IMG/VR virus record: IMGVR_UViG_3300014914_000538
Coordinates: 1-24,094 of that record
Reading direction: 5' to 3' (one strand)
DNA: 24,094 nucleotides
From: a virus
Part shown: piece after piece, positions 2,773-20,305 of the stretch
How positions within the stretch are numbered: position 1 is the stretch's first letter
How the letters are laid out: every line of letters begins with the position of its first letter
Made by a program: the position numbers and the translations under genes
The notes under the pieces: model-generated
Database searches by the model: none
Seen by the model: only the letters and a program-made list of their open reading frames with translations
Told to the model about the DNA's origin: nothing

Positions 2773-3912
2773 ATGGGTTGGTTAACAGGTTGGAAATATA
2801 GAAAGTCACACATAATTAATAGTGCTTCTGATGCCGGGCAAAACTATCAGATAAGAATTACAGTTCATTATGGAAGTGGCGACGATAATGGAGAAGATGT
2901 TTATTTAAATACGAAATGTAAACCAGACTTTGGAGATATAAGATTTACATCTGATGATGGTTCTGCGCTTCTTAGCTCTTGGAGGGAAAAAAAGATCGAT
3001 TCTGACTATGCGATTTTTTGGGTAAAGATAGCTGATAATTTAAGTAGCAAAGATGTAACAATATACATTTACTATGGGAAAGAGGATGCAACTTATCCCT
3101 ATTTATCAAGCGATCAAGAGCATGGAGAAGCAACATTTGTGTTTTTCGATAATTTTGAAGATAATAATTTTGATGATGAAAAATGGCAAACATGGGGAAA
3201 TGGCGGTAATGTTAACGAGGAAAACGGAAAATTAATTGTCACTTCTGGAAAATGGGCTAATGAAAATAGATTTGTTGCAACTAAAAATATATTTCCTGTT
3301 CCCTTGGCGTTAGAAGCAAAAGTTAGAAGAGGGAATGAATATCACGAGGTTTGTTTTGGCATGTGTAGTCACGACCAAATAAATAATAATAATATTATCA
3401 ACAAGTTTTATTCTGCCCCTTTTGATGTGCGTCCAGATTCTGATAAAATTTCATATATAAATGGAAATGATGTAAATGCGACTATTGGACATTATTCATT
3501 TGATGAAGATACAGAACCTCACAGAGTGACCTTGATTAGAATGGGAACAGATTATGATAAGTTCTTTTGTGATGGGGAAGAAAAAAGCGTTGGTCATACA
3601 ACTTCTGTTGATAGACATATATTTGCTTTCGCAGAAAGATATCATGGACAAAGCATTATAGAATTAGACTGGGTAGCAGTTAGAAAGTATGCAGAGCCCG
3701 AACCTAGTCATGGTACTTGGGGTAGCGAACAAGGATTTTTTGTTTTCTCGGAAATACTTTCGCTAACTACAAGCTTAGAAATAACTTTAAGTAAAACTCT
3801 CGTGGGTGTTTTTCTTGCGAGAGTTTTGCTAGGAATTAACTATGTAAGAACTTTAAAGAGAAAATTCTTAGCTCGAATCGAAGAACAAGAAAAAGGGCTG
3901 AGAACAAAGTGA
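2773..3912 (+). CDS. DUF2341-domain protein with lectin-like beta-sandwich, putative virion appendage
   Basis: WLTGWKYRKSHII...NYQIRITV...DFGDIRFT...AIFWVKI...IYIYYG is the DUF2341 signature. The track start GTG 2761 lies inside the GGTGA SD (2760-2764), so ATG 2773 is preferred. Confidence 0.75.
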   Translation: MGWLTGWKYRKSHIINSASDAGQNYQIRITVHYGSGDDNGEDVYLNTKCKPDFGDIRFTSDDGSALLSSWREKKIDSDYAIFWVKIADNLSSKDVTIYIYYGKEDATYPYLSSDQEHGEATFVFFDNFEDNNFDDEKWQTWGNGGNVNEENGKLIVTSGKWANENRFVATKNIFPVPLALEAKVRRGNEYHEVCFGMCSHDQINNNNIINKFYSAPFDVRPDSDKISYINGNDVNATIGHYSFDEDTEPHRVTLIRMGTDYDKFFCDGEEKSVGHTTSVDRHIFAFAERYHGQSIIELDWVAVRKYAEPEPSHGTWGSEQGFFVFSEILSLTTSLEITLSKTLVGVFLARVLLGINYVRTLKRKFLARIEEQEKGLRTK

Positions 3913-3918
3913 GAATTC

Positions 3919-3928
3919 TTAAATATAA
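3919..3928 (+). promoter_or_regulatory. Archaeal TATA-box-like promoter element TTAAATATAA
   Basis: Lies in the intergenic gap, about 27-36 nt upstream of ATG 3955. The same motif recurs in other gaps. Confidence 0.55.
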
Positions 3929-3954
3929 TCTTCAAAATCTTATAAGTGATAAAG

Positions 3955-4269
3955 ATGAGCAGAATCGAAATAGTAAGAGGAGATAGAAATTTCTATTTGG
4001 AATTTACGATTCTAGACGCAGATGGAAATGCAGTAGATTTAACAAATGCTACTCCTAAACTAAAGTGGAAAAATTATTCAGATGGAAGTGTTAACTGGAT
4101 AATAGGAGAAGTTGTTAATGCAATAGAAGGTACTTGCAGGTTTTTAGTTCAAGATGAATTTTTAGGAGTTACTGGTGAGTTTAAGGCAGAAATAGAGATT
4201 ACGTATTCAGATGGAAAAATAATTACTGCTCCTAATTTATGTATAAAAGTTATTCCTGATCTTGCTTGA
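3955..4269 (+). CDS. BppU N-terminal-like Ig-fold protein (virion structural)
   Basis: IEIVRGD...LEFTILDADGNAVDLTNAT...GTCRFLV...GEFKAEIEITYSDGKIITAP matches the BppU/DUF2479-like pattern. ATG 3955 is preferred over GTG 3946. Confidence 0.65.
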   Translation: MSRIEIVRGDRNFYLEFTILDADGNAVDLTNATPKLKWKNYSDGSVNWIIGEVVNAIEGTCRFLVQDEFLGVTGEFKAEIEITYSDGKIITAPNLCIKVIPDLA

Positions 4270-4278
4270 GGAATTAAT

Positions 4279-4602
4279 ATGACTGATTGGGTAAAGGAAG
4301 TTGAAAAAGAGAAAGAAAAAATTAAAAAATGGAAGATAGAAGACAGACTAAGCTACTTAGCTAAACTTACTTTCATGAATGGAACAGTTGCTTCTTCAGT
4401 AGCAGGATGGCAACAGTGGCTTTCTAATGCAATTACTATGCAAAACTTCTCAGAAGAAGAATTGAAGAAGTTAGTAGATGAATTTGAGAAAATAACTCTT
4501 GCCTTCTTAGATCTTGACATTAAATATACAAAGTTTCTGAAAAACAGATTAGAAAAGAAAAAGAAGAAAGAGAATAAAGAGCAAAAATCTTATATCTCGT
4601 GA
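4279..4602 (+). CDS. DUF2153-like small helical protein
   Basis: DWVK...DRL...WQQWLSN...FSEEEL...LDLDIKYT resembles the archaeal DUF2153 family (WVK, DRL, FDQWL, LELDIKHT). Recognised by eye only. Confidence 0.55.
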   Translation: MTDWVKEVEKEKEKIKKWKIEDRLSYLAKLTFMNGTVASSVAGWQQWLSNAITMQNFSEEELKKLVDEFEKITLAFLDLDIKYTKFLKNRLEKKKKKENKEQKSYIS

Positions 4603-4607
4603 TAAAA

Positions 4608-7600
4608 ATGTCTCTAAAAGTTCTAGGAACTCGAGGAGAAATTGAGGAAACCTCGAAAAAACACAAGAAACATTCTGGTATTTTAATAGACGATGTTCTC
4701 TTCGACTTGGGCGAACCTATTTATCTTGATTTACATCCGAAAGCGATATTTCTTTCCCACCTACATCCAGACCATTATTTTCCAGAAAAGTATAAGAAAG
4801 AAAAAAATCCATTGAGAGAACATAGCAAGATTCCAATCTATAGTATTGAGAAACCCAGAGGAGCAGAGAATTGGATAAAACTTGAGAAGGGGAAAGAATA
4901 CAAAGTAAATGATTTAATAGTTATTCCAATTCCGACTGTTCATAGTAAGAAAGTAAAAACTACAGGGTTTCTAATCAAAACAAAAGGGAAGCGGATTCTT
5001 TATACTAGTGATTTATTATGGATAAAGAAGAAATGGCATGATAAGATTAAAGACCTAGATGTTGTAATAACGGATGGTTCTAGTTTCGATAGAGACTTAA
5101 TAAGAAGAGATAAAGAAACCGGACAACCTTATGGCCATGCATCAGTTAAGAAACTAGTTAAGTTCTTTAAGGATAAAGGAGCCAAGAATATAATAATTAC
5201 TCACTATGGAAAATGGCTTGTCGAAGAGCCTAAAAAGGGATACATAAAAATAAAAGAACTAACAGATGAAAAGACAAAGGTAATTCCTGCTAAAGATGGA
5301 GATGAATTCTCCTTGGAAGAATTAATAACTACTGAAGAAATTAAACCTATGATTCCTAAAGTAATTGCTAAAATTAAGCCTAAATGGGGTTTATATTTAG
5401 TAAAGCCTCATGGAGAGCTTATTGCTTCTGGCAAGAAAAAACTTATAGTAAAATCTAAACGTTTCGAATCTCATATTAATGAGCCTTTGTATCTTTTGGA
5501 AGATAACCTTTGTTGGGGTATTATTTCCTTACAAGCTCCAGAAAAAATCTCCTGGGAAAAGTTCCTAGAACTACAAGAGAAGCATTTAATCTCTGAAGAA
5601 GAAGTTGAAGACTGGAACTGGAATAGAAACAACTTATATGCATATGAATTTCAGGTTCTGAAAGTTTTTGATCCTCCTCTTCCTGTTAAAGTTCCAAAAG
5701 GAGTTCAGGTTTTCGTTTCAAGTAAAAAGTTAAAATGGAAGAAGGAGTTTAGTCTCTTAGATCTACTTTCTTATGAAACAGAAATCCCCGAAGTTTTCTT
5801 AGAAATCAGAGAGGAGTTAAGTTCTAGAGGAGTCTCGTATCACTTAGAAGGTTTGATCAAAGAGAGTACAAAAGATTGGGTTAAAAGCTACATAAAGAAT
5901 CTTGAAAAATATACTAGAGCTCAAGTAGGTGATGATTGGAGAATTGTCTTAGGCTGGTATTCTTCTCTTAAGAGAGGAAAGAAACTGTACAAAGGAAAAG
6001 AGAAGATCCCGATTACTATCAAAGATTGTCAAGAGATAGGACTAGCAATTGTAAAGGAACTTATCAAAAGAGGTTGTACATTTAATGCTCCTTCTACTTA
6101 TAAGAAATATGCAAGAGAACTATTCGAATGGATAATAAAGAAAATAGGTGGAATAGAGAAAATACCTTGGAAGAAAGGACAAAAGCCTGAGAAGTTAGAG
6201 AATAAAAAGATAGATCCGAGTAAAGTTACCAGAGAACAGTTAGAGTTTATAGATGCTCCTTATTGTAAGTCTTTAAGTGATAAAGAACTTAAGGCTCTAA
6301 ACAAGCGCTTGCATGAACTATATCGTAAGATAGGGAAAGTAATAGAACCTCTAGAGAATGCTCATATCTTTACTTGGAATGAAATGAGAAGAAGAGGGAT
6401 ACCTCAAGAAATCTGGGATGGTCTAACAGAAGCTACAGCTTTAGAGGTTATCGAATATCCGGAACCTGAGTTTGGAAAACCTCAGAAGGTTCTTTCTGCT
6501 GACGAAGAAAGAACTTTGGAAGAAATAATTAATAGTTTTCCTGATAAAATCGAGATAAACTTTCCATATCATATTTACTTAGTTGGTGGAGTAGTTAATA
6601 GAGAAAAAGACTTGAAAGATCATGATATTGATCTTCTATTTAAACAGCCTTATCCTTTCATAAATCCTACTATCAAGAGTTTTCTTTATCAAATAGCACA
6701 AAAAGATCCAAAGTTAGCAGAGAAACTTCATTTAGTTTGGGATCCTCATGGTCCTCAAATTGGTTATTGTGTTCCTCTGTATAAAATGACTTTTGAAAAA
6801 GTTCCTGCTAAATATAGAAAGAGAAGTTCTCCTTATGAATGGCTTTCTGAGGTTCCTAAATTATTTAAGCCGAGTATAGGTATGAAACCTAGATCGGGTC
6901 TTCATAAAAATGAATTCTTTGATGTCAAAGAAATGTGGGAAAAATGGGGTAAGAAATTTATTGATAGAGGAATAGTCGTTCAGAAGAAATATGATGGTAT
7001 GAGATTTCAAATTCATGTAAAAGGAAATAAAGTAGCTTGTTTCACAGAAGATAGGAAACGTGATAGAGCTAGTGTCTTTAAGAAATCAATTAAAGAACTT
7101 CTTCAGAAGAAAACAGCAGATAACTTTATCTTAGATGCCGAAATGGTGGAATACGATTGTCATGGAAAAGAAGTGAAGAATGAGTTAGAAAAGATTTGTA
7201 CTCCACTTAAGAGAGAAGATATGATAAAGTGGATAGGGGCAACTAAGAAAGGTCTTGATGACGAGAATGTAGTTTTTCATGTTCATGACTGTCTTATGAT
7301 TAATGGAGAACCTATTCATAACAAAGGCTGTATAGAAAGATGGAAAGCTATAAGGAAATGCTTCCCTGATAAACTAAAACACTGGTCTCGAGTTCCTTCA
7401 GAATTGGCTACAAATGCGAAAGAGTTCTTTAGAGCTGTAGATAAAATGCGATCGATTCCTGGTTCAGAAGGTGTAGTATGTAAAGCTGCAGACTCTCCAT
7501 ATAGAATAAAGTTTAAGGGAGAAAATAGGCCTGACTACTGGTGTAAATTGAAGAACTTGAAAGAAATAGATGTTATGGTCTATAAAGTAATTCAGAAGAA

Positions 7601-8237
7601 AACTAAAGAAGGAAAGCCTTTGGATCAATACCTTTATGTTTCTGCCTTTAGAATACCATGTACTATGTATGAGAAATTCAAACCAGATAAAGTCTTCAAG
7701 AAAGGTGGAAAGTGTTATTCAATAATTGGAAGAACTTATGCTACTTCCGAGAAATGTAAACCAGGAGATATAATTACAGTAAGACCTATTAAGATAGATC
7801 ACTTTGAAGACAAAAAGACTGGGAAAATCTGGTATGTTTGGATGTTCCCACTTTATGCAGGTAAACATCCTGCTAAGAAAGAACCAGATTCCTTAGATGT
7901 GGTGAAGAAGATAGAAGCTGTAGGAACTGGACCAACCAAAGAACAAAGAGTAACTCTCTCTAAGTTAGTCTTCAAATTAGAGCCTTGTCCCTTCTGGAAT
8001 GATGAAAGGATCTGTCCTTTCAAGACAAGATTCTTCATACCTAGGGATAAAGAAAAGAAAGAACTTTCTGAGAAAATTGATAAGATAGAGATAGAATACC
8101 TTAAATTCCCGATAGTTTGTCGGTTTGCTAATGTGTATAGATGTAGGTTCGTAAAGCCTTATTATTATGATATAAAAGAGTTTAAGGTAAAAGAAATAGA
8201 TGAGGATACAGGTGAAGAAATTGAAGATAACTCCTAA
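4608..8237 (+). CDS. Multidomain protein: MBL-fold hydrolase + ASCH + helical repeats + Pol-beta-like nucleotidyltransferase + ATP-dependent ligase (adenylation + OB) + Cys-rich C-terminus
   Basis: MBL HLHPDH (4758-4775), YTSD, GHAS and ITHYG. ASCH GLYLVKPHGELIASGKK (from 5382). NTase YLVGG..DHDID (6576-6632). Ligase motifs KYDG (6987-6998), ILDAEMV, HVHDCL, EGVVCK (7467) and WCKLK (7539). GTG 4599 is an alternative start. Confidence 0.85.
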   Translation: MSLKVLGTRGEIEETSKKHKKHSGILIDDVLFDLGEPIYLDLHPKAIFLSHLHPDHYFPEKYKKEKNPLREHSKIPIYSIEKPRGAENWIKLEKGKEYKVNDLIVIPIPTVHSKKVKTTGFLIKTKGKRILYTSDLLWIKKKWHDKIKDLDVVITDGSSFDRDLIRRDKETGQPYGHASVKKLVKFFKDKGAKNIIITHYGKWLVEEPKKGYIKIKELTDEKTKVIPAKDGDEFSLEELITTEEIKPMIPKVIAKIKPKWGLYLVKPHGELIASGKKKLIVKSKRFESHINEPLYLLEDNLCWGIISLQAPEKISWEKFLELQEKHLISEEEVEDWNWNRNNLYAYEFQVLKVFDPPLPVKVPKGVQVFVSSKKLKWKKEFSLLDLLSYETEIPEVFLEIREELSSRGVSYHLEGLIKESTKDWVKSYIKNLEKYTRAQVGDDWRIVLGWYSSLKRGKKLYKGKEKIPITIKDCQEIGLAIVKELIKRGCTFNAPSTYKKYARELFEWIIKKIGGIEKIPWKKGQKPEKLENKKIDPSKVTREQLEFIDAPYCKSLSDKELKALNKRLHELYRKIGKVIEPLENAHIFTWNEMRRRGIPQEIWDGLTEATALEVIEYPEPEFGKPQKVLSADEERTLEEIINSFPDKIEINFPYHIYLVGGVVNREKDLKDHDIDLLFKQPYPFINPTIKSFLYQIAQKDPKLAEKLHLVWDPHGPQIGYCVPLYKMTFEKVPAKYRKRSSPYEWLSEVPKLFKPSIGMKPRSGLHKNEFFDVKEMWEKWGKKFIDRGIVVQKKYDGMRFQIHVKGNKVACFTEDRKRDRASVFKKSIKELLQKKTADNFILDAEMVEYDCHGKEVKNELEKICTPLKREDMIKWIGATKKGLDDENVVFHVHDCLMINGEPIHNKGCIERWKAIRKCFPDKLKHWSRVPSELATNAKEFFRAVDKMRSIPGSEGVVCKAADSPYRIKFKGENRPDYWCKLKNLKEIDVMVYKVIQKKTKEGKPLDQYLYVSAFRIPCTMYEKFKPDKVFKKGGKCYSIIGRTYATSEKCKPGDIITVRPIKIDHFEDKKTGKIWYVWMFPLYAGKHPAKKEPDSLDVVKKIEAVGTGPTKEQRVTLSKLVFKLEPCPFWNDERICPFKTRFFIPRDKEKKELSEKIDKIEIEYLKFPIVCRFANVYRCRFVKPYYYDIKEFKVKEIDEDTGEEIEDNS

Positions 8238-10488
8238 GATAATTAATTGGCTAGAACTTCTTGCTAAAGCTCCTCCTAAGAAAGGTGAGGGAGGAGAAGG
8301 CGGGTTCTTTCTTGCACCCTATATGGAATATCCTACTTGCAAGAAATGTAAATACGTTATGCAACATCATTGGAGAGGAGCTAGTGTTCATACTGACTGG
8401 AGAATGGAAGTAAACGACCATCTAGTAGGTTGGACTGTATTAGATAATCCAAAAGGAACTCCTACTGTTACTACAGTTAAAGAAGCTAGAAAAGTCTTTA
8501 ACGAATGGAAAAGTAAATTCAAATTCCGACCAGAGAAAAAGAATATTGGCTTAAGAGCAGAAACCAAATGTCCTTCAGAAGTTTGTGATGAATGGACTTA
8601 TTCTATAAAAGGAATCAAAGACGGTCAAGTCTTTATTGAGTATAAAAATATAGAAAAGCTTTCTTTAAGAACTTTAGAAGAATTAGCTAGACAACCTAAA
8701 GTTTGGTTAAACGTAGAAGGGATAGTTAAACCAGGAGAAGTAGGAGCCACGAAAGAATATCCTGGAGTTTTCTATATCATCGATAAGGGTCAAGTTTACT
8801 TTGGTGCTCAAAAACCTTACTTCCATGAGTACTTTATTAAATCAGAGAAGAAAGATGGTGTTTTCTCTAAGAAAGATTGGACAAGAGTAATAGTAAGAGC
8901 AGTTAATGTGAATATAATTGATCCAGAAACTAAGAAGCCTAAACCAGGGACAGAACTAATGTGGAGGATCTTGATTCCTGGAGATCAAACTCCGTATTGT
9001 CTAAAAAGAGGAATGAAAAAGAAATGGGTTCCACCTAAGAACTATATCCCAGTTCCACCAGAATGGAGAAAGGGAGAGCTCTATGAGAAATGGTATGAGT
9101 GGGTCAAAGAACAATGGAAAGGTGGCAAGAAAAGCAAAGAAAGCAAAAGTGAGCTGGCAGAAGCTAGTTTTGTTGTTCATTATCTATCTTGGATGGGTCC
9201 AGTACACGTAAGAGGAATACCTAGAATGAGATGGTTATTAAGATTAAAAGAAGGAGGCAAAGTAAGATCGTTCATTTCTGATTATGACTTTACTAGATTC
9301 CAACCTGTTCCTTTGACTGACGAAGGATATGTAGCTTCTAAGTGGTTTGATTATGAAGGAGAAATTAAGCCAGGAGAGAATCCAACTTATAATCCTACTA
9401 AAGAACTGAATGCTAAAATGAAAATAATTGACAAAGGAAAGGTAAATGTTAAAAGTGAAAAAGTAAATGGGACTGAGAAACTAATTTTAGAAATGAAAGG
9501 AAAGAAGTTAAAAGGTACGTTTGCTCTAATTCAAGAAGAGAAAGGTTCTAAAATCTATACTTGGAAAGTAGAAAAACTTAGTAATTTGAAAAAGGCTAAA
9601 TTTGTCTTACAAATTCATGAAATAGAAACACCAGAAGGTTTGAAAAAACATTGGGACGTTAGAGTTTCAGATGGCTGGGAATTTAATCTCTATGGAAATC
9701 CCGTAGAGCTTGAAAAAGGTGAAGGTGTTAAGGCTGTATATAAAAGATGTTTGAATATTGAGAAATGGATGAATATCAAAAAGCCTAAGACTAAAATGAT
9801 GATAGGTAACTTGATTACTTATGTCACTCCTATAGATGAGGGAGATGTAAGTATAATTGAATACAAACCACCAATATTTATCTCAATGGAATTTCATGGA
9901 AAGAAATTAAAAGGCTATTATGTCTATATAGAGAAAGATAAAGAAGCTGTCTTTAAGAAAGCAAAACTCCCTGAACCACTTTCTGGAACAGGAGATCCAA
10001 CAACAGGAGATTATTACAGACCTTTCAAAGTAGAGAAAAAGAAAACATGGGATTACTATTGGTTGTATCTTTACGATATTGGAGAATTTACAAGATGTGT
10101 AAAAGATCCTGAGAAATATATCCCTGCTTTGAAAGATAGGCCAAAAGAAGTTCTTGATGTCCTAGTGTGTCTTTATCCAAGACCAGGTACTATTCATGGA
10201 GCAAGAGTATGTGGGTTGAAAATATCAGAAGAATGGTCAGTAGATAAAGCTAGTGAGTGGATAAGGAAGAATAAGTTACATACTTGGGAAGGAGAATTAA
10301 TAAGAGAGCAAAGAAAGAAAACAGAAAGTGAGTTAGAAAAAGAAGTTGACTCTGCAGTACTTAAAATCTTAAAAGAGATAGAAAGAAAGGCATCAGAGAA
10401 AGATACTGAAGAAGAAAAGTTGAAAAAGGAGTTGCTTAAAAAGAAACTAGAATTAATAGAAAAATGGTTGGAGGTTAATAAGGAATGA
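8221..10488 (+). CDS. Protein with three tandem LigD-type 3'-phosphoesterase (PE) domains, an unknown domain and a C-terminal coiled coil
   Basis: PE1 YVMQHHWRGASVHTDWRME and PE3 FVLQIH...HWDVR match the LigD_N Q-x-H...H-x-D-x-R motif. PE2 is degenerate. C-terminal DxG motifs occur in all three domains and G-K-K-L-K-G in PE2 and PE3. TTG 8221 follows GGTGA at 8211-8215; ATG 8200 is an alternative start. Confidence 0.8.
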   Translation: MKITPKIINWLELLAKAPPKKGEGGEGGFFLAPYMEYPTCKKCKYVMQHHWRGASVHTDWRMEVNDHLVGWTVLDNPKGTPTVTTVKEARKVFNEWKSKFKFRPEKKNIGLRAETKCPSEVCDEWTYSIKGIKDGQVFIEYKNIEKLSLRTLEELARQPKVWLNVEGIVKPGEVGATKEYPGVFYIIDKGQVYFGAQKPYFHEYFIKSEKKDGVFSKKDWTRVIVRAVNVNIIDPETKKPKPGTELMWRILIPGDQTPYCLKRGMKKKWVPPKNYIPVPPEWRKGELYEKWYEWVKEQWKGGKKSKESKSELAEASFVVHYLSWMGPVHVRGIPRMRWLLRLKEGGKVRSFISDYDFTRFQPVPLTDEGYVASKWFDYEGEIKPGENPTYNPTKELNAKMKIIDKGKVNVKSEKVNGTEKLILEMKGKKLKGTFALIQEEKGSKIYTWKVEKLSNLKKAKFVLQIHEIETPEGLKKHWDVRVSDGWEFNLYGNPVELEKGEGVKAVYKRCLNIEKWMNIKKPKTKMMIGNLITYVTPIDEGDVSIIEYKPPIFISMEFHGKKLKGYYVYIEKDKEAVFKKAKLPEPLSGTGDPTTGDYYRPFKVEKKKTWDYYWLYLYDIGEFTRCVKDPEKYIPALKDRPKEVLDVLVCLYPRPGTIHGARVCGLKISEEWSVDKASEWIRKNKLHTWEGELIREQRKKTESELEKEVDSAVLKILKEIERKASEKDTEEEKLKKELLKKKLELIEKWLEVNKE

Positions 10489-10832
10489 AGATCTTCAAAG
10501 ACCCAGATTTAAAGGAAGAAATAAAAGCTATTAACTTTGGTAAAGTAAAAGTTGGTCAGAGTAAAGAAGTTACTGTTTGGCTTCTTAATGACTCAAAAGG
10601 GATTCTCACTAATTTGGCTTTTGAGTTTTCTAGTCCGTTGCCACCTTCTGAAAAAATAGAAGTAGTGAAAGCGCCTGTCACAATTCAACCCGGAAAAGCA
10701 GAACCTTTAACTCTAAGATGGAGACCTTCTGCTAAGTTTGAGCAGGCTCTTGAAATTGGAATTAGAGTAACTGGAGAAATAGTTTATGTTGCAAAAAGAA
10801 AAATAGAAGTAGAAGAGGAGGTTAAGAAATGA
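10485..10832 (+). CDS. Single Ig-like (ASH/PapD-like) domain protein
   Basis: INFGKVKVGQSKEVTVWLLND...TIQPGKAEPLTLRWRP fits the ASH/choice-of-anchor-D Ig pattern. ATGA overlap with the upstream gene. Confidence 0.6.
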   Translation: MKIFKDPDLKEEIKAINFGKVKVGQSKEVTVWLLNDSKGILTNLAFEFSSPLPPSEKIEVVKAPVTIQPGKAEPLTLRWRPSAKFEQALEIGIRVTGEIVYVAKRKIEVEEEVKK

Positions 10833-11323
10833 TAGGTATAGTTTCAGTCTTTCAGGTACATGACTTATTCGAAACAGATCCAAAATTGATTGAGAAAATA
10901 ATCTCTTTCTGGAGACTTAACATGAAAGCTTTCGGTGTAAAGAAACTGATTATAGTTAACATTGATGACCTTCCTGTTACTTGTGGGGATCTTGAAATAG
11001 AATTTGAAGTCTATAATACTCTTGAAGAAGTCCTAAAGAAATACTCAGATTATACTTTTGTCTTCCTTGAGTGTGCTCAGCAAATAGAGGGAATAGACTT
11101 TATACCTCTTAAGAGCTTTGAGCATCCAGCAGATAATGTTTTGTATGTCTTTGGTTCTGACTACTCTGTTCTCAATTTATCTGAGTTGAAAGAGAAGGGG
11201 TATTTAGAGGGTAACTTTGTAGTCTCGATTGAGACCGGATCAACAATACCTCTATGGGCTCACACTGCAATGTCTATAGTTCTCTATGACAGGAAGGTGA
11301 AACTAAGTGACAGTAACGAGTAA
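10829..11323 (+). CDS. SPOUT-superfamily (SpoU/TrmH/TrmL-like) methyltransferase
   Basis: WRLNMKAFGV (motif 1-like), VLYVFGSD (motif 2, around 11141-11161) and VSIETGSTIPLWAHTAMSIVLYDR (motif 3-like trefoil-knot region). Confidence 0.65.
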   Translation: MIGIVSVFQVHDLFETDPKLIEKIISFWRLNMKAFGVKKLIIVNIDDLPVTCGDLEIEFEVYNTLEEVLKKYSDYTFVFLECAQQIEGIDFIPLKSFEHPADNVLYVFGSDYSVLNLSELKEKGYLEGNFVVSIETGSTIPLWAHTAMSIVLYDRKVKLSDSNE

Positions 11324-12872
11324 TCTTACAACAATATCTAATTGTGATTCAGAAACTAACTGGGACTCTAACGATCCATCTTTTGGTACAGATGATATAA
11401 GAAAAGAAGGATCTTATTCTCTTTCAATGGACGTAGATATAGAAACAAGTTATATGCGTTATGATCTAGGCTCTGCTCAGGATTATTCCAATAGAGTTCT
11501 CTATGTCTGGATGATGTGCATGACTGCCTCCTTCTTAGATACAAAGGCAAATGGAGGTATGCAAATTTTCATAGAAGATTCTTCTGGCAATCAATCGTAT
11601 TGGTATGTAGGTGGAAGCGATACCTATAAAGGAGGTTGGAAATGTTTCTCAGTTTATTGCTCTTCAACTCCAGATGCAAATAATGGAACAAACGCAGATC
11701 CTTCACAAACTCGTTATATAGGAGTAAGATACAAAGGAGTGGCAAAGAGCAAACTAGCTGATAACTGTTATGTAGATTTTGTAAGATATGGATCTGCTAC
11801 TCAACCTGCAGTTAAGATAACAGGAGGGTCTGCCGCTTCTCCATTAACTTGGGAGGATCTTTTTTCAGATGATGATACTTCTGATATAGGTGTGATTCAG
11901 AAAGGAGAACAAACCTATCTTTTAACTGGAGGAATCCAGTTTGGTGATACAAGTTCTGGTGATGTCTATTTCTCTGACAAATTGCAAGTTGTTCAGTTTG
12001 AAGATTTACCTTCAATCCCAGATCAGTTCGAAATTTCTGTAGTAAACAACCCTAGTGGAATAGCCTCCGTTCTCTTTGGAGAAAAATCTGGAGAAGTAGG
12101 TCTTGCAGGTGGTTTAATTAGAGCAAAGAATACTATCTACCCCTATAAAGTGACTATCACTGATGTAGATGTTTCAACTTTCAAGCTATGTGGAGTTACT
12201 TTTCTAGATGCTTCAACTATAACTCTTCCTTCTGAGACAGTAGGAGCAGAAGTACTTAACTGTCTTTTTCAATCCTGTGCTAGAGTAGATCCTTCAAGTT
12301 CTACTTTTCGATATTGTACGTTCGTTGATGCTGATGATGTTGCTCTACTTTTGCCCTCTTCTCATAATGTCAAAGATTGTTCTTTCTTATCTAACCCCAA
12401 AGCAGTAGAAATAGATACGCCAGGGACTTTCACTTTTGACAATCTTACTTTTACTGGAAATGATATAGATATTTATAATACTTCTGGTGGAACAGTAGTA
12501 GTCCAGTGTGTCAATGGTTCAAACCCAAGCACTTCTTCTTCACCATCTGGTGGAACAGTAGAAATTCAAAACGTGGTTTACTTAAAAGTTTATGTCAAAG
12601 ATAGTGATGGAGTAGAAATTTCAAATGCAAGAGTTGCTATTTATAAATCCTCTGACATGACTCAACTAATGAATGAACTAACTGATGCAAACGGAAAGGC
12701 AGAAGAAACATTCCAATACCCAGGATCGGATGTAGAAGTTATTATCCGAGTCAGGAAATCTTCAGTAGGAGATACGAGGTATATTCCTGTTGAGACTATA
12801 GGAGTGATAGGAGTAGACGGTCTTACTCAATATGTTACTATGTATGAAGATACCTCTCTTGAAGGAGGTTAG
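11307..12872 (+). CDS. Putative virion structural protein: carbohydrate-binding-like beta-sandwich, beta-helix, C-terminal Ig-like domain
   Basis: GTG start with AGGTGA SD at 11295-11300. Beta-helix-type repeats (VLNCLF, FRYCTF, VKDCSF, FDNLTF) and a C-terminal VKDSDGVEISNARVAIY...TDANG motif. Confidence 0.55.
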   Translation: MTVTSNLTTISNCDSETNWDSNDPSFGTDDIRKEGSYSLSMDVDIETSYMRYDLGSAQDYSNRVLYVWMMCMTASFLDTKANGGMQIFIEDSSGNQSYWYVGGSDTYKGGWKCFSVYCSSTPDANNGTNADPSQTRYIGVRYKGVAKSKLADNCYVDFVRYGSATQPAVKITGGSAASPLTWEDLFSDDDTSDIGVIQKGEQTYLLTGGIQFGDTSSGDVYFSDKLQVVQFEDLPSIPDQFEISVVNNPSGIASVLFGEKSGEVGLAGGLIRAKNTIYPYKVTITDVDVSTFKLCGVTFLDASTITLPSETVGAEVLNCLFQSCARVDPSSSTFRYCTFVDADDVALLLPSSHNVKDCSFLSNPKAVEIDTPGTFTFDNLTFTGNDIDIYNTSGGTVVVQCVNGSNPSTSSSPSGGTVEIQNVVYLKVYVKDSDGVEISNARVAIYKSSDMTQLMNELTDANGKAEETFQYPGSDVEVIIRVRKSSVGDTRYIPVETIGVIGVDGLTQYVTMYEDTSLEGG

Positions 12873-12873
12873 G

Positions 12874-12884
12874 TTTAAATAAAA
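12874..12884 (+). promoter_or_regulatory. Archaeal TATA-box-like element TTTAAATAAAA
   Basis: Intergenic, 30-40 nt upstream of ATG 12914, with a GGTGA SD (12904-12908) in between. Confidence 0.6.
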
Positions 12885-12913
12885 AAATAAGTTAAAAGTA
12901 GTAGGTGAATTTA

Positions 12914-15097
12914 ATGGCTATATCTGATGAATGGAACATAGATGCTTTAAACAAAAGGATTTATACAACTTCTGGTCCCTCGACCTTTACTGTTAATGAT
13001 CTTTATTCTTGGCTAATGGATGAGTTCGACAGCCAACAATACATGGACGATCCTATACCTATGACTGCTCAGACACCTACAGAGTATACTTTAGTAAATG
13101 GCTGGTTTATTGATGAAAATTCTCTTAAGTACCTCAAAGGTGGTGCTATAAAGACTGATGGTTGGAATGAAGAGATTTACATTCTCTATTTACAATCTTC
13201 TGGCTATACAGACTGTGTTTCAGGAGACATTGGTAAATACGTTCAAGATGGTGGAGGAGACTTTGGTGTTCTATTATGGTACAATAATACAAAGAGAAAG
13301 TGGTGGATAAGAAAAACTGGTACAATTCCCTCTTGTGGAACTTCTATCTCAATCAATGGAGGAACTGGTGCTGGTACTCTCTTGTCTTCAAATTGTTCGA
13401 AAACGGGAGAAGATCTTTATGCAAACATCTACACCCTAGGTACTATTGAGTCGGGTACTAACATTTATGTTATACAAGCAGGAGAAAGGTATCCTACCTA
13501 TTGGGGTATTGGGAGTGAGTGGTGGCCTGCAGGGCACATTGATATTCTTGTTAAAGTTAAAGAAGCTGGTACCGAGGTTGACAATGGAGTTGTTACTGTT
13601 TATGGCAGAGAATATACGGATTACTATGACTTCTATGAAATTGACTTATCTGCTGGTGGTAGAAATGCTGTACCTTTGGCTACTTCAAATGACTTGGACA
13701 ACCAGACTGCAGAGTCTACTGTTGCTAATTATATAGAAAAGATCAAAGTTTGGTTTGTCCACGGAGATTTAGCCTACGACACTGGTTCAGGCACTCTACC
13801 AACTAATGTAGTATCACATGTCATCCATGACACTGCTTCACATGCTGTTGGAGTAGTTTTAGAACAAGTTTCTGGTGGTACAGTCTCTGGTACTTTTAAG
13901 CTTGGAAACACATCTGGCACATTTAATGATAATGAAGCTTTAGAGTTCTTGTCAGAATTGCAGTTCAACAATCCTTCAGGCACATTCTATGTAGGAGATA
14001 CAGTTACAGGAGAAAGCTCCAATGCTCAAGGAATTATCAGATATCTAGACCAAATAGATGGAGCAACAATAGGTTGTCTTTATCTTTCAGATAGAAATGC
14101 TAATGACTTCCAAGATGGAGAGAACTTATTAGTTTCTGGAAACACTATTGCTAAAGCTTTAGGGACTCAGACAGACTATAACTGGTCTGGGCAAACTGCT
14201 GGAACTTTGGTATTCGATAATACAATTAACAAAGACATAGACGATGGCCAAGGAGCGAAACCTTATAGTGTAGTCATAGACTTAGGCTCGAAAACTGTTG
14301 CTGAGTTATATGAGTTTGTGAAATATCTTTGTAGAAGAACTTCTAATTACATCCTTTATCCAACTGATGGGTCTTCAACTATCTATCAAATAGTGGGAGA
14401 GCAATATCAGAAAGCAGATACTTCTTATACACAAGTAAAGAAGACATCACCTCTAGGTACCTTTGCTGGTGGCAAGTTCTTTGGTGCTAGAGGAGTCTGG
14501 ATACAAAATATGGATATCAATGATATCAGAAACTATCAGTTAATAGATCATAATAACTCAACTCATGATCCTCCAAACTGGCAATCTTATGTGGTGACAA
14601 ACTTAGTTTCTGGAGACAGAGTAGCAATCTTTCCAACTACTGGAGCAGGATCTGAAACAATTAATAAGTCTCAGTTTACTCTAGCCGGTCAAAGTTCTGG
14701 TGTGGATTATATCCAAGTACAAGAATCAATTCCTGTAGATACTCCATATAAAGAAGAAGACATGCCAGGTGTTATTCGAGTTAGATATAATGTAGGACAA
14801 CCTACTGAAGGAGAAGATATCTATGCATACAACTCAATAGACTTTGACAACAAGAAGTTCATGATACAAGGAACAACTTCAAGAGCTTATACTTCTTCTG
14901 ACAAGGCCTATGTACCTTATCTTGATAGACAAGCAGATGCTTCTCAAGAGTCAGTAACAGTAAAGTATATAGCCGATAGATATGTCTTAGTAGTAGTCAG
15001 AAGGAAAGGAATAATCCCATTCCAACTAGCAGCTACTTTCACTGATACAGGATTGAGAGTTTCAGCGATTAGAACTTCAGATGGAATTGTGACTTAA
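12914..15097 (+). CDS. Large putative virion structural protein
   Basis: 730-codon Gly/Thr/Ser-rich ORF. It contains GTFYVGDTVTGESSNAQG-type modules seen in phage structural proteins and shares modules with both neighbours. ATG 12914 is preferred because GTG 12905 lies within the SD. Confidence 0.55.
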   Translation: MAISDEWNIDALNKRIYTTSGPSTFTVNDLYSWLMDEFDSQQYMDDPIPMTAQTPTEYTLVNGWFIDENSLKYLKGGAIKTDGWNEEIYILYLQSSGYTDCVSGDIGKYVQDGGGDFGVLLWYNNTKRKWWIRKTGTIPSCGTSISINGGTGAGTLLSSNCSKTGEDLYANIYTLGTIESGTNIYVIQAGERYPTYWGIGSEWWPAGHIDILVKVKEAGTEVDNGVVTVYGREYTDYYDFYEIDLSAGGRNAVPLATSNDLDNQTAESTVANYIEKIKVWFVHGDLAYDTGSGTLPTNVVSHVIHDTASHAVGVVLEQVSGGTVSGTFKLGNTSGTFNDNEALEFLSELQFNNPSGTFYVGDTVTGESSNAQGIIRYLDQIDGATIGCLYLSDRNANDFQDGENLLVSGNTIAKALGTQTDYNWSGQTAGTLVFDNTINKDIDDGQGAKPYSVVIDLGSKTVAELYEFVKYLCRRTSNYILYPTDGSSTIYQIVGEQYQKADTSYTQVKKTSPLGTFAGGKFFGARGVWIQNMDINDIRNYQLIDHNNSTHDPPNWQSYVVTNLVSGDRVAIFPTTGAGSETINKSQFTLAGQSSGVDYIQVQESIPVDTPYKEEDMPGVIRVRYNVGQPTEGEDIYAYNSIDFDNKKFMIQGTTSRAYTSSDKAYVPYLDRQADASQESVTVKYIADRYVLVVVRRKGIIPFQLAATFTDTGLRVSAIRTSDGIVT

Positions 15098-15111
15098 GAG
15101 AGTGAATAGCT

Positions 15112-15327
15112 TTGAAGTTTAAAGATCCAAATGGAAGAATACGAGAAGGACTATATTTCAAAAAAGTGAAGTTTGCTGTCAAAGATGCAGTAAACAACGA
15201 CACTCTTAAGCTAGAAGAGTATGTAGAAGTAATGATCAAAGGCAGAAATAGAAAGTGGATTCAGTGGTATAAATACAAAGAATTCAAGGAACTTAATCCA
15301 AGTATAGTGATACAGAATGACAATTAA
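15112..15327 (+). CDS. Small hypothetical protein
   Basis: TTG start with a GAGTGA-like SD upstream. It fills the gap between two genes and overlaps the next start. No family recognised. Confidence 0.5.
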   Translation: MKFKDPNGRIREGLYFKKVKFAVKDAVNNDTLKLEEYVEVMIKGRNRKWIQWYKYKEFKELNPSIVIQNDN

Positions 15328-16969: not shown

Positions 16970-18934
16970 TTGGATATTTCAGACTCATCTGGAATATTTG
17001 ATGTAATTAAAGCTGAGAGAGAACAATTAGAAAGATTATTGAAAACGGCTAAGAATATTACTCATGAGAAAGTAGAGTTTTCTCTTCCTTTTATTTCATT
17101 AGAAGAGAAAAAGGAGAAATTAATAATTTCGGGAGTAGCCTTGACTGAAGGAGTCTGGAAAAATGTTCTTTATCCGAAAGAGGAAATAGCGAAAGCAGTT
17201 AAGAGACTAGAGGGCAAACCTTTGAAAGTTGAACATGGTTTAGATGAACACTTTAAGGATAGAACTGTTGGCAAAGTCTTAGAAACTTATTATGATCCTA
17301 CTCTTAGGTCCTTAATCTTTAAGGCAGAAGTTACAGACCCAGAAGCTATTAAGAAAGTTAAAGATGGAACTTTCCCAGCAGTCTCTTGTTCAACTTGGTT
17401 AGACAAGTTCCCAATTAACTCTGAACAGTCTATAGGCTTTAATTACTTGTTCAACGAACTTTCTCTCGTAAAGTCTCCTGCATGTGATAAGTGTTTCATA
17501 TTTGCAGTAGAAGAACTGTCAAAAAGATTAAATATAAATATTGAAAAGAAAGAGGCAGTGGAAAAAATGTCAGAAAAAGAAGAAAAAGAAGAAGTCCTTG
17601 AAGAATTGAAAACTGAGGAAGAAGAGGAAGAGGAAGAGGAAGAAGAAATCGATCTCTCTGAAATAGAATCACCAAAACTCTATGCTGTTGTTGAACTAGA
17701 AGATCTTTCTGAACTAGAAGAGAATGCAAGAAAGAAAGTAGTGACTTATTACTATGGCTATAGATATCCTTATCCATACTATGGCAAATACCCATATCCA
17801 TACTATCCGTATTACCCATACTATCCTTACAAGCCAAAGAAGAAAAAGAAAGCAAAGAAACCAGAGAAGAAATCTCTTTGGGCTGTCTTAGAACTTGAGA
17901 GTCCTGAAGAAGTAGCAGAACTTAAGAAAAGAGGTAGAAAAGTAGTTTCAGTGTACTATGGCTATTATGGATATCCTTACTACAAATATCCTTACTACGG
18001 CAAAGGGCAATATCCTTACTATGGATATCCTTACTATCCTTACTACGGTAAATATCCAATGCCTAAGTCTGATGCAGACAAAGAAGACGAAGAGGAAGAA
18101 GAGGAAGAAGAAAAAGAAAAAGAAGAGAAACAAGAGAAGGAACCAGAATATAAATGCCCAGAAGGACAAGTTTGGGATCCTGAGCAGAAAAAATGTGTAC
18201 CTAAACCAGAAGAGAAATCAGCAGAAGAAGAACTTTTAGATCTTCTAGAATTAGCAGGTAATTACAAAGACTTTATGAAAAAGTGTATGAAAGAAAAGGC
18301 AGAAGAAATTCCGGATGTTGTTAAGAGAATGAAAGCTTGTGCTGCTGAATGGAAAAAAGAACAGAAGTCTGCTACAATTGAAGAACAAACAGAAGAAATA
18401 ACTAAGTCTCTTGAAGAGAAGTCGGCAACAGATATAAAGGAGTTAGGGAATGAAGTACCTGAGGTTACTAAAATGGAAGAAGCTCCTCAAGAAAAGAAAC
18501 CATGTCCTGAAGAACCTTGTGCTGAAAAGAAAGAGGAAATCAAAGAAGAGACACCAAAGGCAGAAGAAAGTAAACCAGTCGAACCTAAAGTCGAGAAAAC
18601 CGAGGAAATTCAAACAGAAGAGCCTAAACCAGAAGTGAAAGAAGAAATAGAAAAGACAGAACAACCTGTGGAACCTAAACCAGAAGTTAAAAAAGAGGAA
18701 GTAGCAACTCCAAAGGTAGAAGAGCCCAAAGTTGAATCTAAGCCTTCAGAAGAAAAACCCATAGAAGAGAAACCTGCAGAAACTAAGCAAGAAGAAACAG
18801 TCCAAGAAGAAGCTCCAAAAGCTGAAGAGCCTAAAGAAGAAAAGAAAGAACCTACTCCAGAAGAACTAGAGAAATTTGTCAGGGAAAACTACCCTGAGAT
18901 CCTTCTTGAGCTAATCAAGAAGAAAAAATTCTAA
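16970..18934 (+). CDS. Prohead (maturation) protease fused to scaffolding protein
   Basis: The N-terminal ~185 aa carry HK97/assemblin-fold protease motifs (ISGVALTEG, KPLKVEH, FPAVSCS, NELSLVKSPAC). They are followed by acidic, Tyr/Pro-rich and Pro/Glu/Lys-rich low-complexity regions. The gene lies just upstream of the capsid gene. Confidence 0.85.
   Translation: MDISDSSGIFDVIKAEREQLERLLKTAKNITHEKVEFSLPFISLEEKKEKLIISGVALTEGVWKNVLYPKEEIAKAVKRLEGKPLKVEHGLDEHFKDRTVGKVLETYYDPTLRSLIFKAEVTDPEAIKKVKDGTFPAVSCSTWLDKFPINSEQSIGFNYLFNELSLVKSPACDKCFIFAVEELSKRLNINIEKKEAVEKMSEKEEKEEVLEELKTEEEEEEEEEEEIDLSEIESPKLYAVVELEDLSELEENARKKVVTYYYGYRYPYPYYGKYPYPYYPYYPYYPYKPKKKKKAKKPEKKSLWAVLELESPEEVAELKKRGRKVVSVYYGYYGYPYYKYPYYGKGQYPYYGYPYYPYYGKYPMPKSDADKEDEEEEEEEEKEKEEKQEKEPEYKCPEGQVWDPEQKKCVPKPEEKSAEEELLDLLELAGNYKDFMKKCMKEKAEEIPDVVKRMKACAAEWKKEQKSATIEEQTEEITKSLEEKSATDIKELGNEVPEVTKMEEAPQEKKPCPEEPCAEKKEEIKEETPKAEESKPVEPKVEKTEEIQTEEPKPEVKEEIEKTEQPVEPKPEVKKEEVATPKVEEPKVESKPSEEKPIEEKPAETKQEETVQEEAPKAEEPKEEKKEPTPEELEKFVRENYPEILLELIKKKKF
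17675..18058 (+). repeat. Duplicated module ending in Tyr/Pro/Gly-rich tracts
   Basis: KLYAVVELE...RKKVVT-YYYGYRYPYPYYGKYPYPYYPYYPYYPY (17675-17830) and SLWAVLELE...RKVVSV-YYGYYGYPYYKYPYYGKGQYPYYGYPYYPYYGKYP (17873-18058). TATCCTTAC recurs at the DNA level. Confidence 0.9.
18475..18860 (+). repeat. Pro/Glu/Lys-rich low-complexity linker (PKAEE, PVEPKVE, PKPEVKEE, PKVEEPKVE)
   Basis: Imperfect short peptide repeats in the C-terminal part of the scaffold. Confidence 0.75.
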
Positions 18935-19217: not shown

Positions 19218-19270
19218 TTCTTTCTTTCTATATTACGTACTCTTGTAAATATACAAGGGTGAATATAAAA

Positions 19271-20305
19271 ATGAAAAGTTTAGAAGAACTGGCAAGTACA
19301 ATAAGTGTCTCTGCTATCACAGACTTGATACCAAAGGTTATCCTTGATGAAGTAGAAGAAGCTGCAAGGGCTCGTAGATTTGGTCGTAACTTGGTCCGAA
19401 TAAATGAAGACCTTGTTAGGACTAAAGGGCGTTCAATAGTAATTGGACGCAGAGGAACCTTGACAGCTCAAGATGTTTCAGAAGGAACAGAACTATCTAG
19501 CTCCAAAATAACTTATACTTCTAATACAATTACGCCCTCAAAGAAGGGTGTGGCAGTGCACATAACTCAAGAAGCTATAGAAGGCTGTGAACTTAACCTG
19601 ATAAGGGATGCGGTCACAGAAGCAGGAATTGCTTTGGCAGACAAAGAAGACTCTGATATTATGAAAGCATTGCTGGATTATACAGAGGATGCTCATACCT
19701 TTGGAGCTGCAGGAACTGCGACAATATCTGGCGGAGCTCTTGTCTATGTTGAAGAGTCAGAAAGTAACTTTGTAAAGGCAGATTACTATGATGGCAAAAT
19801 AGTTGCTTCAGGTGCTTGTACAATAACTTATTGGCAATCTGCTCATGGTAAGAGTTACTGTGTAGATGCTCTCTCTGAAGGCACTTGGTCAGTGAATGGC
19901 TATAAAGCAATAGTCAAAGCAGTAACAGCAGTTAAAGCAAGAAAATGGCGTCCTCAGTTCATAGTAATTCATCCTAATGCTTTGGGTGGAATTCTGAAGA
20001 GCAATATGTTCATTGATGCTGCTAAATATGGAACTAATGAACCAATAGTCAATGGTGAGATAGGTAAGATAGCTGGTCTGAAAGTCTTGGTTACAACTCA
20101 AATGCCTGATGGAGCTGCTCTAGTTATAGACCCAACCAGAGCTGCTTGGTTTGCAGTAAGAAGAAGGCTAGATATGAAGAGATGGGATAATCCTGCAACT
20201 GACTCGATAGAACTATACTTCTATGTGGAGTATGGTGTCAAGGTAACAGACAAAGATGCTCTGGAACTGATAGTTAACATAACAGACGGTTCAGCTGATC
20301 TTTAA
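19271..20305 (+). CDS. Major capsid protein, HK97 fold
   Basis: LIPKVILDEVEEAAR (N-arm/F-loop), DVSEG (E-loop), TITPSKKGVAVHITQE, IVIHP, GEIGKIAGLKVLVT and YGVKVTD follow the HK97-family motif order. ATG 19271 is preferred because GTG 19259 lies within the SD. Confidence 0.92.
   Translation: MKSLEELASTISVSAITDLIPKVILDEVEEAARARRFGRNLVRINEDLVRTKGRSIVIGRRGTLTAQDVSEGTELSSSKITYTSNTITPSKKGVAVHITQEAIEGCELNLIRDAVTEAGIALADKEDSDIMKALLDYTEDAHTFGAAGTATISGGALVYVEESESNFVKADYYDGKIVASGACTITYWQSAHGKSYCVDALSEGTWSVNGYKAIVKAVTAVKARKWRPQFIVIHPNALGGILKSNMFIDAAKYGTNEPIVNGEIGKIAGLKVLVTTQMPDGAALVIDPTRAAWFAVRRRLDMKRWDNPATDSIELYFYVEYGVKVTDKDALELIVNITDGSADL

Follow-up and report, generated by a model that had tools for sequence, protein, structure and literature searches.

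A split set of predicted DNA end-healing and sealing enzymes among the head genes of a tailed virus, a candidate for capsid cargo

The virus record IMGVR_UViG_3300014914_000538 supplies a stretch of 24,094 bp (positions 1 to 24,094 of the record; the whole stretch is referred to as the window) in which two overlapping genes encode large multidomain proteins, P0001 and P0002. We found that this pair belongs, as a form divided over two genes, to a widespread, undescribed family of tailed-virus head-module proteins that carry DNA end-processing and sealing enzymes. P0001 joins an MBL-fold hydrolase, an ASCH domain, a helical region, a minimal nucleotidyltransferase (NTase) and an ATP-dependent ligase, and P0002 contains three repeats of the 3'-phosphoesterase (PE) fold of LigD. 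The reading that we favour, at a probability of about 0.55, is that both proteins form a DNA end-healing and sealing cargo that would be loaded into the capsid and released into the host with the genome; we infer that they are packaged and ejected, and likewise their substrates and when they act.

Domain make-up of P0001 and P0002

A first-pass annotation made from the window alone had assigned MBL, ASCH, Pol-beta-like NTase and complete ATP-dependent ligase domains to P0001, and all four were recovered in place, well above chance (Table 1). The ligase has the nucleotidyltransferase core motifs I, III, IV and V, followed by an OB domain. The alignment of the ligase profile with the Thermococcus ligase 4eq5 covers both the adenylation and the OB domain at 6.3e-17, with LigD ligase domains reaching just 0.16 in the same PDB profile search; the best matches among solved structures are archaeal replicative or Lig1-type enzymes, and the NCBIfam dnl1 and non-homologous end joining (NHEJ) ligase models score about equally. 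The MBL domain shows the MBL fold and the HxHxDH motif of the RNase Z/PhnP branch, its family profile matching 1zkp at 1.5e-6, RNase Z at 2.5e-6 and PhnP at 2e-3 in the PDB (structures including 1zkp, 1y44 and 3g1p). Apyc1 (7u2r) was matched by this profile at only 0.15; a weak precomputed PF23023 match occurs in some relatives, and Pfam gave none for P0001 at E<=0.1.

Structure comparison of the ASCH, helical and NTase parts was carried out with a model of P0001 residues 235-794 (mean pLDDT 77, about 90 in the ASCH part). VIA superimposed the ASCH part on 5guq (Z 11.0), 6kir (10.1) and a further ASCH protein (8.7), in line with an ASCH fold, and TTHA0113 (2dp9) was matched both in the family-profile sequence search (4.6e-4) and by Foldseek (1.1e-5, TM-score 0.73). 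For the NTase, VIA gave Z values of 7.5 to HI0073 (1no5; root mean square deviation (rmsd) 3.2 over 89 residues), 6.7 to the MNT of a HEPN-MNT pair (8xeh), 6.2 to 2rff and 5.9 to 1wot. The motif GG-x11-DID (VGG 662, DID 676-678) and D715 are invariant in 19 relatives, and neither fingers nor a thumb of family X could be recognised in the domain; with such middling Z values the model supports the fold assignment with moderate confidence. The helical region gave no convincing structural match (best VIA Z about 6-7). It recurs as a movable module of about 100 amino acids (aa) among distant family members. The four conserved Cys near the C-terminus of P0001 are predicted to form a probable Zn module.

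P0002 was described by the first-pass annotation as carrying three LigD-type PE domains. Three repeats of the PE fold, an eight-stranded beta-barrel, are indeed present (mean pLDDT of the P0002 model 81.9), two of them being copies with a variant site and one a degenerate copy. The repeats are mutually homologous by hhalign (1.1e-9 between repeats 1 and 3, 2e-15 between repeats 2 and 3). Repeat 1 is the universal core of the family, with its site residues conserved in 42-43 of 43 relatives and no change in the H, H, D and R across 30 distant proteins; its N-terminal motif matches 3n9b at 0.006 by profile. Repeat 2 superimposes in VIA on 3p43 (Z 16.2, rmsd 2.3, 120 residues) and 3p4h (15.8) and is matched by Foldseek to 3p4h, 3p43, 3n9b, 5dmp and 2lj6 with a probability of 1.00. 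All PE matches that Pfam and NCBIfam give with the single P0002 sequence fall in this repeat, Pfam LigD_N staying under its cut-off (28.3 vs 31.1 bits). The profile of repeat 3 matches the archaeal PE structures 3p4h at 3.7e-12 and 3p43 at 3.7e-9.

The site of LigD PE comprises, in PaePE numbering, the Mn-binding His42, His48 and Asp50 together with Arg52, the essential His84, and Tyr88, and the enzyme acts on 3'-ribonucleotides (PMC3300020). Counterparts of the first four residues are found in repeat 1 (H57, H64, D66, R68) and repeat 3 (H473, H484, D486, R488) in 40-43 of the 43 sequences. They are missing from repeat 2, where the metal-ligand columns are not conserved, a loss that extends over the whole family of 43 relatives. 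In repeats 1 and 3, Lys and Trp apparently stand for His84 and Tyr88. Where strand beta4 has E-x-H, repeat 1 has E121-T-K123 and repeat 3 has K515; Tyr88 corresponds to W169 and W523, the equivalence of Lys and His84 being read from the sequence alignment and not from a superposition. As the Lys and Trp replacements are themselves invariant, they suggest a working variant site. Catalytic-type residues are conserved in the MBL, the NTase, the ligase and PE repeats 1 and 3, and activity is predicted for them.

The C-terminal domain of P0002 matched neither XkdF nor a PE repeat nor the N-terminus of a 654-aa protein encoded further downstream (see below) by hhalign; an Atlas feature search with it was empty. 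This domain with its helical hairpin, and likewise the Cys-rich acidic tail of P0001, might serve as capsid or scaffold anchor. In a fold search of BFVD no convincing viral structural relative was seen. The cleavage motif x-x-Leu-Ser/Ala was looked for by eye in the P0001-family alignment, and the boundary sequences were not consistently conserved.

Relatives of both proteins carry inteins with canonical junctions inside at least eight conserved motifs of the ligase, OB, NTase and helical domains and of PE repeat 1. The sites in PE repeat 1 are RG|SVH.D, GW|T and FG|AQKP; the NTase is interrupted at GPQIGY| (P0127), the ligase at motif V and the OB domain at WMFP. In the helical domain an intein lies in GDDWRI|, with the junction DDWRI|C...HN|CLGWYSS in P0122. 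Inteins typically persist at functionally constrained sites, and the insertion within GDDWRI marks this helical motif as functionally important; the motif is probably a functional site. Both family proteins have inteins with LAGLIDADG homing endonucleases remarkably often (homologues P0030, P0054, P0071, P0122, P0127, P0144, P0149 and others).

Position among head genes and fusion to head proteins

P0001 has 51 relatives and P0002 has 114 (the latter in a 90%-clustered protein collection), and among 1.84 billion representatives the PE protein accounts for 535 clusters (50% identity) at E<=1e-30. A contig look-up with the exact P0002 protein gave no entry. A scan of IMG/VR with the P0002 linker stretch as search pattern yielded 70 loci of the PE family, as compared to just 4 in a set of one genome per prokaryotic species; open reading frames (ORFs) were called in all loci and labelled with profiles made in this analysis. 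Among 50,697 GenBank phage records the sole relative is the uncultured ANMV-1 (KP703175), where the gene is annotated just as ligase. At 3200-5800 of that record the product named 'ATP-dependent DNA ligase' has unannotated C-terminal PE-like repeats; a MutT/Nudix-like gene stands before it and the gene of a 1166-aa uncharacterised protein after it. Binned relatives come from metagenome-assembled genomes (MAGs) of Bathyarchaeota, Thermoprotei, Ignisphaera, Aenigmatarchaeota and Jordarchaeales. Of 27 non-redundant close loci, 11 have a DUF2153 gene next to P1 (the P0001 homologue) or PE, and the Atlas relatives of DUF2153 are mostly from Bathyarchaeota. Together, the binned relatives and DUF2153 point to archaeal hosts. 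An explanation by thermal damage only was set aside, as relatives stem from hydrothermal MAGs (Guaymas, Ignisphaera) but also from the marine methane-seep virus ANMV-1.

In a tree of PE repeat 1 the family falls into two clades with good support (100/98), that of the window with 22 rows and a sister clade for which the counts below refer to 30 non-redundant proteins. The first-pass annotation had placed the pair in the virion morphogenesis module and had named homologues residing mainly in replication modules or early operons as the observation that would speak against it. Instead, the relatives are found in head modules, between portal and protease, scaffold and capsid genes, and often fused to the prohead protease or to MuF.

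This arrangement is most directly visible in the sister clade. Half of its 30 proteins (15) bear a C-terminal XkdF protease domain, one bears Peptidase_S78 and one MuF; a ligase is part of 15, Dam methylase of 6, Dcm methylase of 2, and UDG and MBL of 1 each. Within three genes upstream of them there are 11 portals, 4 MuF proteins and pieces of terminase, and within three genes downstream 9 capsid proteins, 5 proteases and 2 proteins of the cement type. Examples are a MuF-PE protein following a Mu-type portal, a UDG-ligase-PE protein immediately upstream of XkdF protease, scaffold and capsid, a Dcm-PE-XkdF protein, and NTase, ligase, PE and XkdF in a single chain. According to the tree the protease fusion was gained or lost at least three times.

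In the clade of the window the usual order is tail-fibre genes, DUF2153, P1, PE, a homologue of the 654-aa protein, a 78-aa protein, capsid, connectors and tube. The 654-aa homologue is the first or second ORF downstream of PE in 16 of the 22 loci that have it downstream, with the capsid gene in these 16 following 3-5 ORFs downstream of PE. Relative contigs of 107-172 kb keep the gene order of the window, the series DUF2341, BppU_N, DUF2153, P1, PE and, further on, capsid being conserved on contigs of 120-172 kb. Searching outward from the capsid gene, with a narrow capsid alignment as a broader one was too divergent, gave the same association: the PE gene was present on 15 of 17 viral contigs with a related capsid, the other two being too short to tell. 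Polyvalent effectors of phages are recognised by encoding within the head module together with fusion or linkage to head proteins; the family shows both fusion and linkage, and the window linkage alone.

P1 and PE are fused to each other in some relatives, including two cases in the clade of the window. Such fusions, and a relative with the same domain set permuted, show the two proteins to be one functional unit. In the permuted case, a 1566-aa viral protein (L068:6827-11527), ASCH, MBL, NTase-ligase, helical module and PE are arranged in an order different from that of the window pair, indicating domain shuffling inside a fixed set. In the window the overlap at 8200-8237 places the two proteins in different frames, whereas some relatives fuse both in frame.

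The window itself (GC content 0.355), the whole of one contig, is a fragment of a tailed virus genome. Its long ORFs all run on the + strand, most of them overlapping or abutting; according to the ORF list those at 4279-12872 overlap by 4-38 nt, i.e. they form a single operon that includes structural genes. The recognisable genes are a lectin/polysaccharide-lyase-like fragment, DUF2341, BppU_N (baseplate upper protein), DUF2153, the two giant genes, an Ig-like protein, an HK97-fold capsid and two tail-tube paralogues, next to several unassigned ones. The first-pass annotation had seen structural genes on both sides of the pair, and we confirm them, with BppU_N and DUF2341 upstream and the HK97 capsid and tail-tube genes downstream. 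Also in agreement with the first-pass annotation, Pfam and NCBIfam detected no replication gene, no Ku and no AEP or LigD_Prim-Pol domain in the scanned ORFs of the 24,094-bp window, a result that refers to the window and not to the rest of the viral genome. Neither a portal nor a terminase was recognised anywhere within the window. The bin from which the contig stems mixes contigs with a GC content of 0.36-0.60 and hence contains more than one organism; the contig was therefore read on its own, and nothing was inferred from bin to contig or vice versa.

Table 1. Features of the window, with coordinates in the 24,094-bp stretch
Feature	Coordinates	Strand	Evidence and remarks
DUF2153 small helical protein	4279..4602	+	Pfam DUF2153 6.5e-9; 4-nt overlap with P0001, translationally coupled
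P0001, 1212-aa multidomain protein	4599..8237	+	Start GTG 4599 or ATG 4608; ORF list and translation
MBL-fold hydrolase, RNase Z/PhnP/BA1088 type	4608..5318	+	HLHPDH residues 54-59; Pfam Lactamase_B_2 1e-14; phrog_392 1e-15
ASCH (PUA-like) domain	5373..5738	+	2dp9 profile and Foldseek match; VIA match
Conserved helical region, about 235 residues (385-620)	5751..6458	+	Invariant motif GDDWRI..W at residues 445-453 (alignment)
Putative minimal Pol-beta-superfamily nucleotidyltransferase (MNT-like), about 100 residues	6504..6803	+	VGG 662, HDID 675, VWD 713
ATP-dependent DNA ligase, adenylation and OB	6942..7883	+	KYDG 797, DAEMV 846, EGVVCK 957, KLK 983; Pfam DNA_ligase_A_M 4.8e-23
Four conserved Cys (1130, 1139, 1174, 1182), then conserved YYY and acidic tail	7986..8144	+	Near-invariant Cys columns
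P0002, 762 aa	8200..10488	+	38-nt overlap with P0001, +1 frame
PE repeat 1, with large insertion	8332..8985	+	Conserved H57, H64, D66, R68, E121, K123, W169
Conserved linker DQxPY...W.PP.G..P	8986..9129	+	Q263, Y266, P279, P284, P286, W298 invariant across the family
PE repeat 2, PE fold without metal ligands	9151..9585	+	VIA match to archaeal PE structures
PE repeat 3	9589..9975	+	H473, H484, D486, K515, W523 invariant; R488 in 40 of 43
C-terminal beta-rich domain (598-700) and Glu/Lys-rich helical hairpin (710-759)	9991..10476	+	Secondary structure of the model
654-aa protein, provisionally an XkdF-type prohead protease N-terminus with scaffold-like Glu/Lys/Tyr-Pro-rich rest	16970..18934	+	hhalign to XkdF domains
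HK97-fold major capsid protein	19259..20305	+	Pfam Phage_capsid_4 5.9e-18; phrog_267 8.8e-20

Between the PE gene and the gene of the 654-aa protein lies a block of about 6.5 kb (10485-16935) that encodes the Ig-like protein of 115 aa followed by proteins of 164, 521, 730, 71, 384 and 154 aa and is found only in a minority of relatives. The gene at 10829-11323 had been taken for a SPOUT gene; we found no support for SPOUT, and none of four libraries (Pfam, PHROGs, NCBIfam, PDB sequences) gave a match. A PDB sequence search with the 730-aa protein gave no informative match either. The N-terminus of the 654-aa protein aligned with XkdF prohead protease domains by hhalign (probability 68%, E 4.8e-5, 105 columns), H89 and S139 being invariant. 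In its 25 homologues Pfam found no protease family, just C2H2 zinc fingers and CBM_14, and the matches of its profile to PDB sequences were of low complexity. The protease-like part is followed by Tyr-Pro tracts and Glu/Lys runs; C2H2 zinc fingers occur in 10 of the 25 homologues, which is unusual for a scaffold. The tail-tube paralogues (134 and 263 aa) are adjacent at 22616-23811, each matching Phage_tube_2.

Capsid cargo and the explanations that compete with it

In the favoured reading both proteins would be made late, translationally coupled in one operon with structural genes, would be built into the procapsid along with the protease-scaffold protein, would remain in the head alongside the DNA and would be released with the genome into an archaeal host. 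There PE repeats 1 and 3 would clean blocked 3' ends of the 3'-phosphate or 3'-ribonucleotide type, the minimal NTase may add or fill in a nucleotide, and the ligase would seal nicks or join ends ahead of any viral gene expression, with MBL and ASCH contributing nuclease or phosphodiesterase activity and nucleic-acid-binding or base-recognising activity, respectively. We favour packaging because packaged, co-injected effectors are predicted from this very signature, a position between portal and protease, scaffold and capsid genes and repeated fusion to the prohead protease or MuF (PMC5512222). DNA is favoured over RNA as substrate due to the affinity of the ligase to DNA ligases and the Dam, Dcm and UDG partners, and the relative that carries UDG points to a logic of base excision or of single-strand breaks. 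The job may equally be to circularise the incoming genome or to repair damage that is due to nuclease attack or spontaneous.

Several observations weigh against this reading. The window represents a minority arrangement in which about 6.5 kb separate the pair from the protease-scaffold gene, and the assignment of the 654-aa protein as prohead protease is provisional, being based on one hhalign match that Pfam does not see. In the clade of the window the PE protein is never fused to a protease, neither of the two proteins is fused to protease or MuF, and no capsid-targeting element was identified. With the essential His84 apparently being a Lys, the PE chemistry may differ from that of LigD, and the NTase is matched at Z values of only about 7. 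In a capsid, enzymes that depend on ATP cannot turn over, and the action must therefore follow ejection. Finally, the ligase-PE gene of ANMV-1 is not adjacent to head genes in the deposited record, and this uncultured virus is the only GenBank virus with a relative.

Alternatively, the proteins might be associated with head assembly but act in the producer cell, healing and sealing nicks, gaps and ends of concatemeric DNA during packaging as a quality control at the portal or procapsid, with no delivery. T4 needs ligase and endonuclease VII before packaging, a comparable logic. ATP is present in the producer cell and not in the capsid, the same applies to S-adenosylmethionine for the methylase partners, and position in the head module as well as fusion to protease and MuF fit equally. 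An enzyme fused N-terminally to the prohead protease would, however, be inside the procapsid before DNA entry, and MuF-fused enzymes are generally read as ejected effectors (PMC5512222). We regard action in the producer cell as unlikely. We consider it quite improbable that the proteins are ordinary replication or repair enzymes, sealing Okazaki fragments or breaks, that stand beside structural genes by chance and never enter particles. Ligases are common in phages, this one is nearest to replicative archaeal or Lig1-type enzymes, and the ANMV-1 gene is annotated as a plain ligase and lies away from head genes in its record; on the other hand, the head-module position recurs over two deeply split clades, fusions to the prohead protease (at least three events) and to MuF arose repeatedly and independently, and the window has no replication genes nearby.

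The first-pass annotation had also allowed for repair of cut tRNA or RNA. An MBL of the RNase Z kind would then, together with ASCH, NTase, PE and ligase, heal and seal tRNAs cleaved by the host or its defence, similar to Pnkp/Rnl1 of T4. This possibility is weakened by our results to the point of being very unlikely. Although the MBL is nearest to RNase Z and PhnP, some ASCH proteins act on RNA (5guq ZmASCH, YqfB), LigD PE works on 3'-ribonucleotides (PMC3300020) and Pfam RNA_ligase gives a weak match to P0001 (0.003), DNA ligases match far better and including the OB domain, the domains exchanged among relatives (Dam, Dcm, UDG) are specific for DNA, neither a kinase nor a 2',3'-cyclic phosphodiesterase was detected, and the SPOUT neighbour that would have fitted such a role is unsupported. 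Least probable to us is that the PE repeats are not enzymes at all, being DNA-binding or structural spacers in the head, and that the payload consists of the other domains, e.g. an MBL that degrades cyclic-nucleotide defence signals. The lost site of repeat 2, the replacement of His84 and Tyr88 in repeats 1 and 3, relatives in which PE is combined with methylases but not with a ligase, and the weak precomputed match of the MBL to the Apyc1 family in many relatives are in line with this. Yet the four residues H, H, D and R of repeat 1 do not vary among about 70 divergent sequences, inteins reside in these very motifs, the invariant Lys and Trp argue for a working variant site, and Apyc1 gave no better than the above 0.15 in the structure search with the family profile.

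Returning to capsid cargo, a more specific version, to which we assign somewhat less than even odds, is that large archaeal tailed viruses (contigs of 110-170 kb) carry an in-capsid machine for single-strand-break and end repair, in which the variant Lys/Trp PE, a nucleotide-adding step and ligation are assisted by the MBL nuclease and by ASCH; this machine would lack a covalent protease or MuF anchor and would repair or circularise the genome on entry. If the proteins are packaged, many uncultured viruses, chiefly archaeal ones, bring their own DNA-sealing and end-cleaning activity. This would change the view of the first minutes of infection, namely of how genomes are circularised, how nicked or damaged virion DNA survives and how host nucleases are resisted. 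The family is also a source of compact, possibly thermostable ligase, 3'-phosphoesterase and nucleotidyltransferase modules, contains what appears to be a naturally altered LigD PE active site, with Lys in place of His84 and Trp in place of Tyr88, and provides a test case for the targeting of cargo to HK97-type procapsids with and without protease fusion.

Comparison with known systems

We searched the literature and found no paper that describes this family or its architecture, consistent with the first-pass annotation, which had not recognised it; the concept behind it, in contrast, matches the polyvalent proteins and MuF-fused effectors of phages, for which capsid delivery of multidomain enzymes is an established concept (Iyer, Burroughs, Anand, de Souza, Aravind 2017, PMC5512222). 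Like these, and like the T4 Alt and internal proteins and DarB of P1, the family consists of large multidomain proteins that join unrelated enzymes and are encoded among head genes of portal-terminase viruses. Fusion to head proteins such as MuF and DNA methylase modules are common to both, delivery together with the DNA being predicted or known for the polyvalent systems. In contrast to them, the recurrent anchor in our relatives is the XkdF prohead protease instead of MuF, and the window pair has no covalent anchor. The survey of polyvalent proteins lists no DNA ligase, LigD PE, MBL or ASCH domain and reports a paucity in archaea (PMC5512222); packaging of the proteins described here would extend the concept to archaea and to DNA-repair chemistry.

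With bacterial LigD and the archaeal NHEJ set (Ku, Lig, Pol and PE; Methanocella paludicola, PDB 5dmp) the pair shares the combination of PE-fold 3'-end-healing, ATP-dependent ligase and nucleotidyltransferase, and the His-His-Asp site with its Arg is kept. Nevertheless the kit is not a LigD/NHEJ system, even though it would work like LigD-type end-healing and sealing. The window has no Ku and has a minimal Pol-beta-type NTase in place of the AEP primase-polymerase; the ligase is nearer to Lig1 and archaeal replicative ligases among solved structures; its PE comes in three copies, the middle one dead, and apparently has Lys and Trp for His84 and Tyr88; and the setting is a viral head module.

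Virus-encoded functions for the entering genome are also known elsewhere. Mycobacteriophages Corndog and Omega reportedly encode Ku and use the LigD of the host to circularise their genomes, and we know of no head association of their Ku. The likeness lies in viral end-joining functions at genome entry, the difference in that those phages bring Ku and borrow the ligase of the host, whereas the present family brings ligase and PE but no Ku. Particles of African swine fever virus (ASFV) contain Pol X, ligase and AP endonuclease, which repair the genome as it enters. The family resembles that virus in having an enzyme of the Pol-beta family and an ATP-dependent ligase, which in the favoured reading would likewise travel in virions, and the UDG-ligase-PE relative fits the base-excision logic. 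In contrast, ASFV is a eukaryotic virus with an unrelated particle architecture, separate small proteins and no PE domain. If the more specific version of capsid cargo given above is true, the family would be a prokaryotic-virus counterpart of the ASFV particle repair enzymes and a new cargo class among packaged viral effectors. With T4 Pnkp and Rnl1 in tRNA repair it shares virus-encoded end-healing plus sealing, those enzymes belonging to kinase-phosphatase and RNA ligase families, acting on RNA and being encoded outside the head module. New in the window are the split, anchor-less archaeal-virus form, the addition of MBL and ASCH, and a triplicated PE in the order active-type, dead, active-type.

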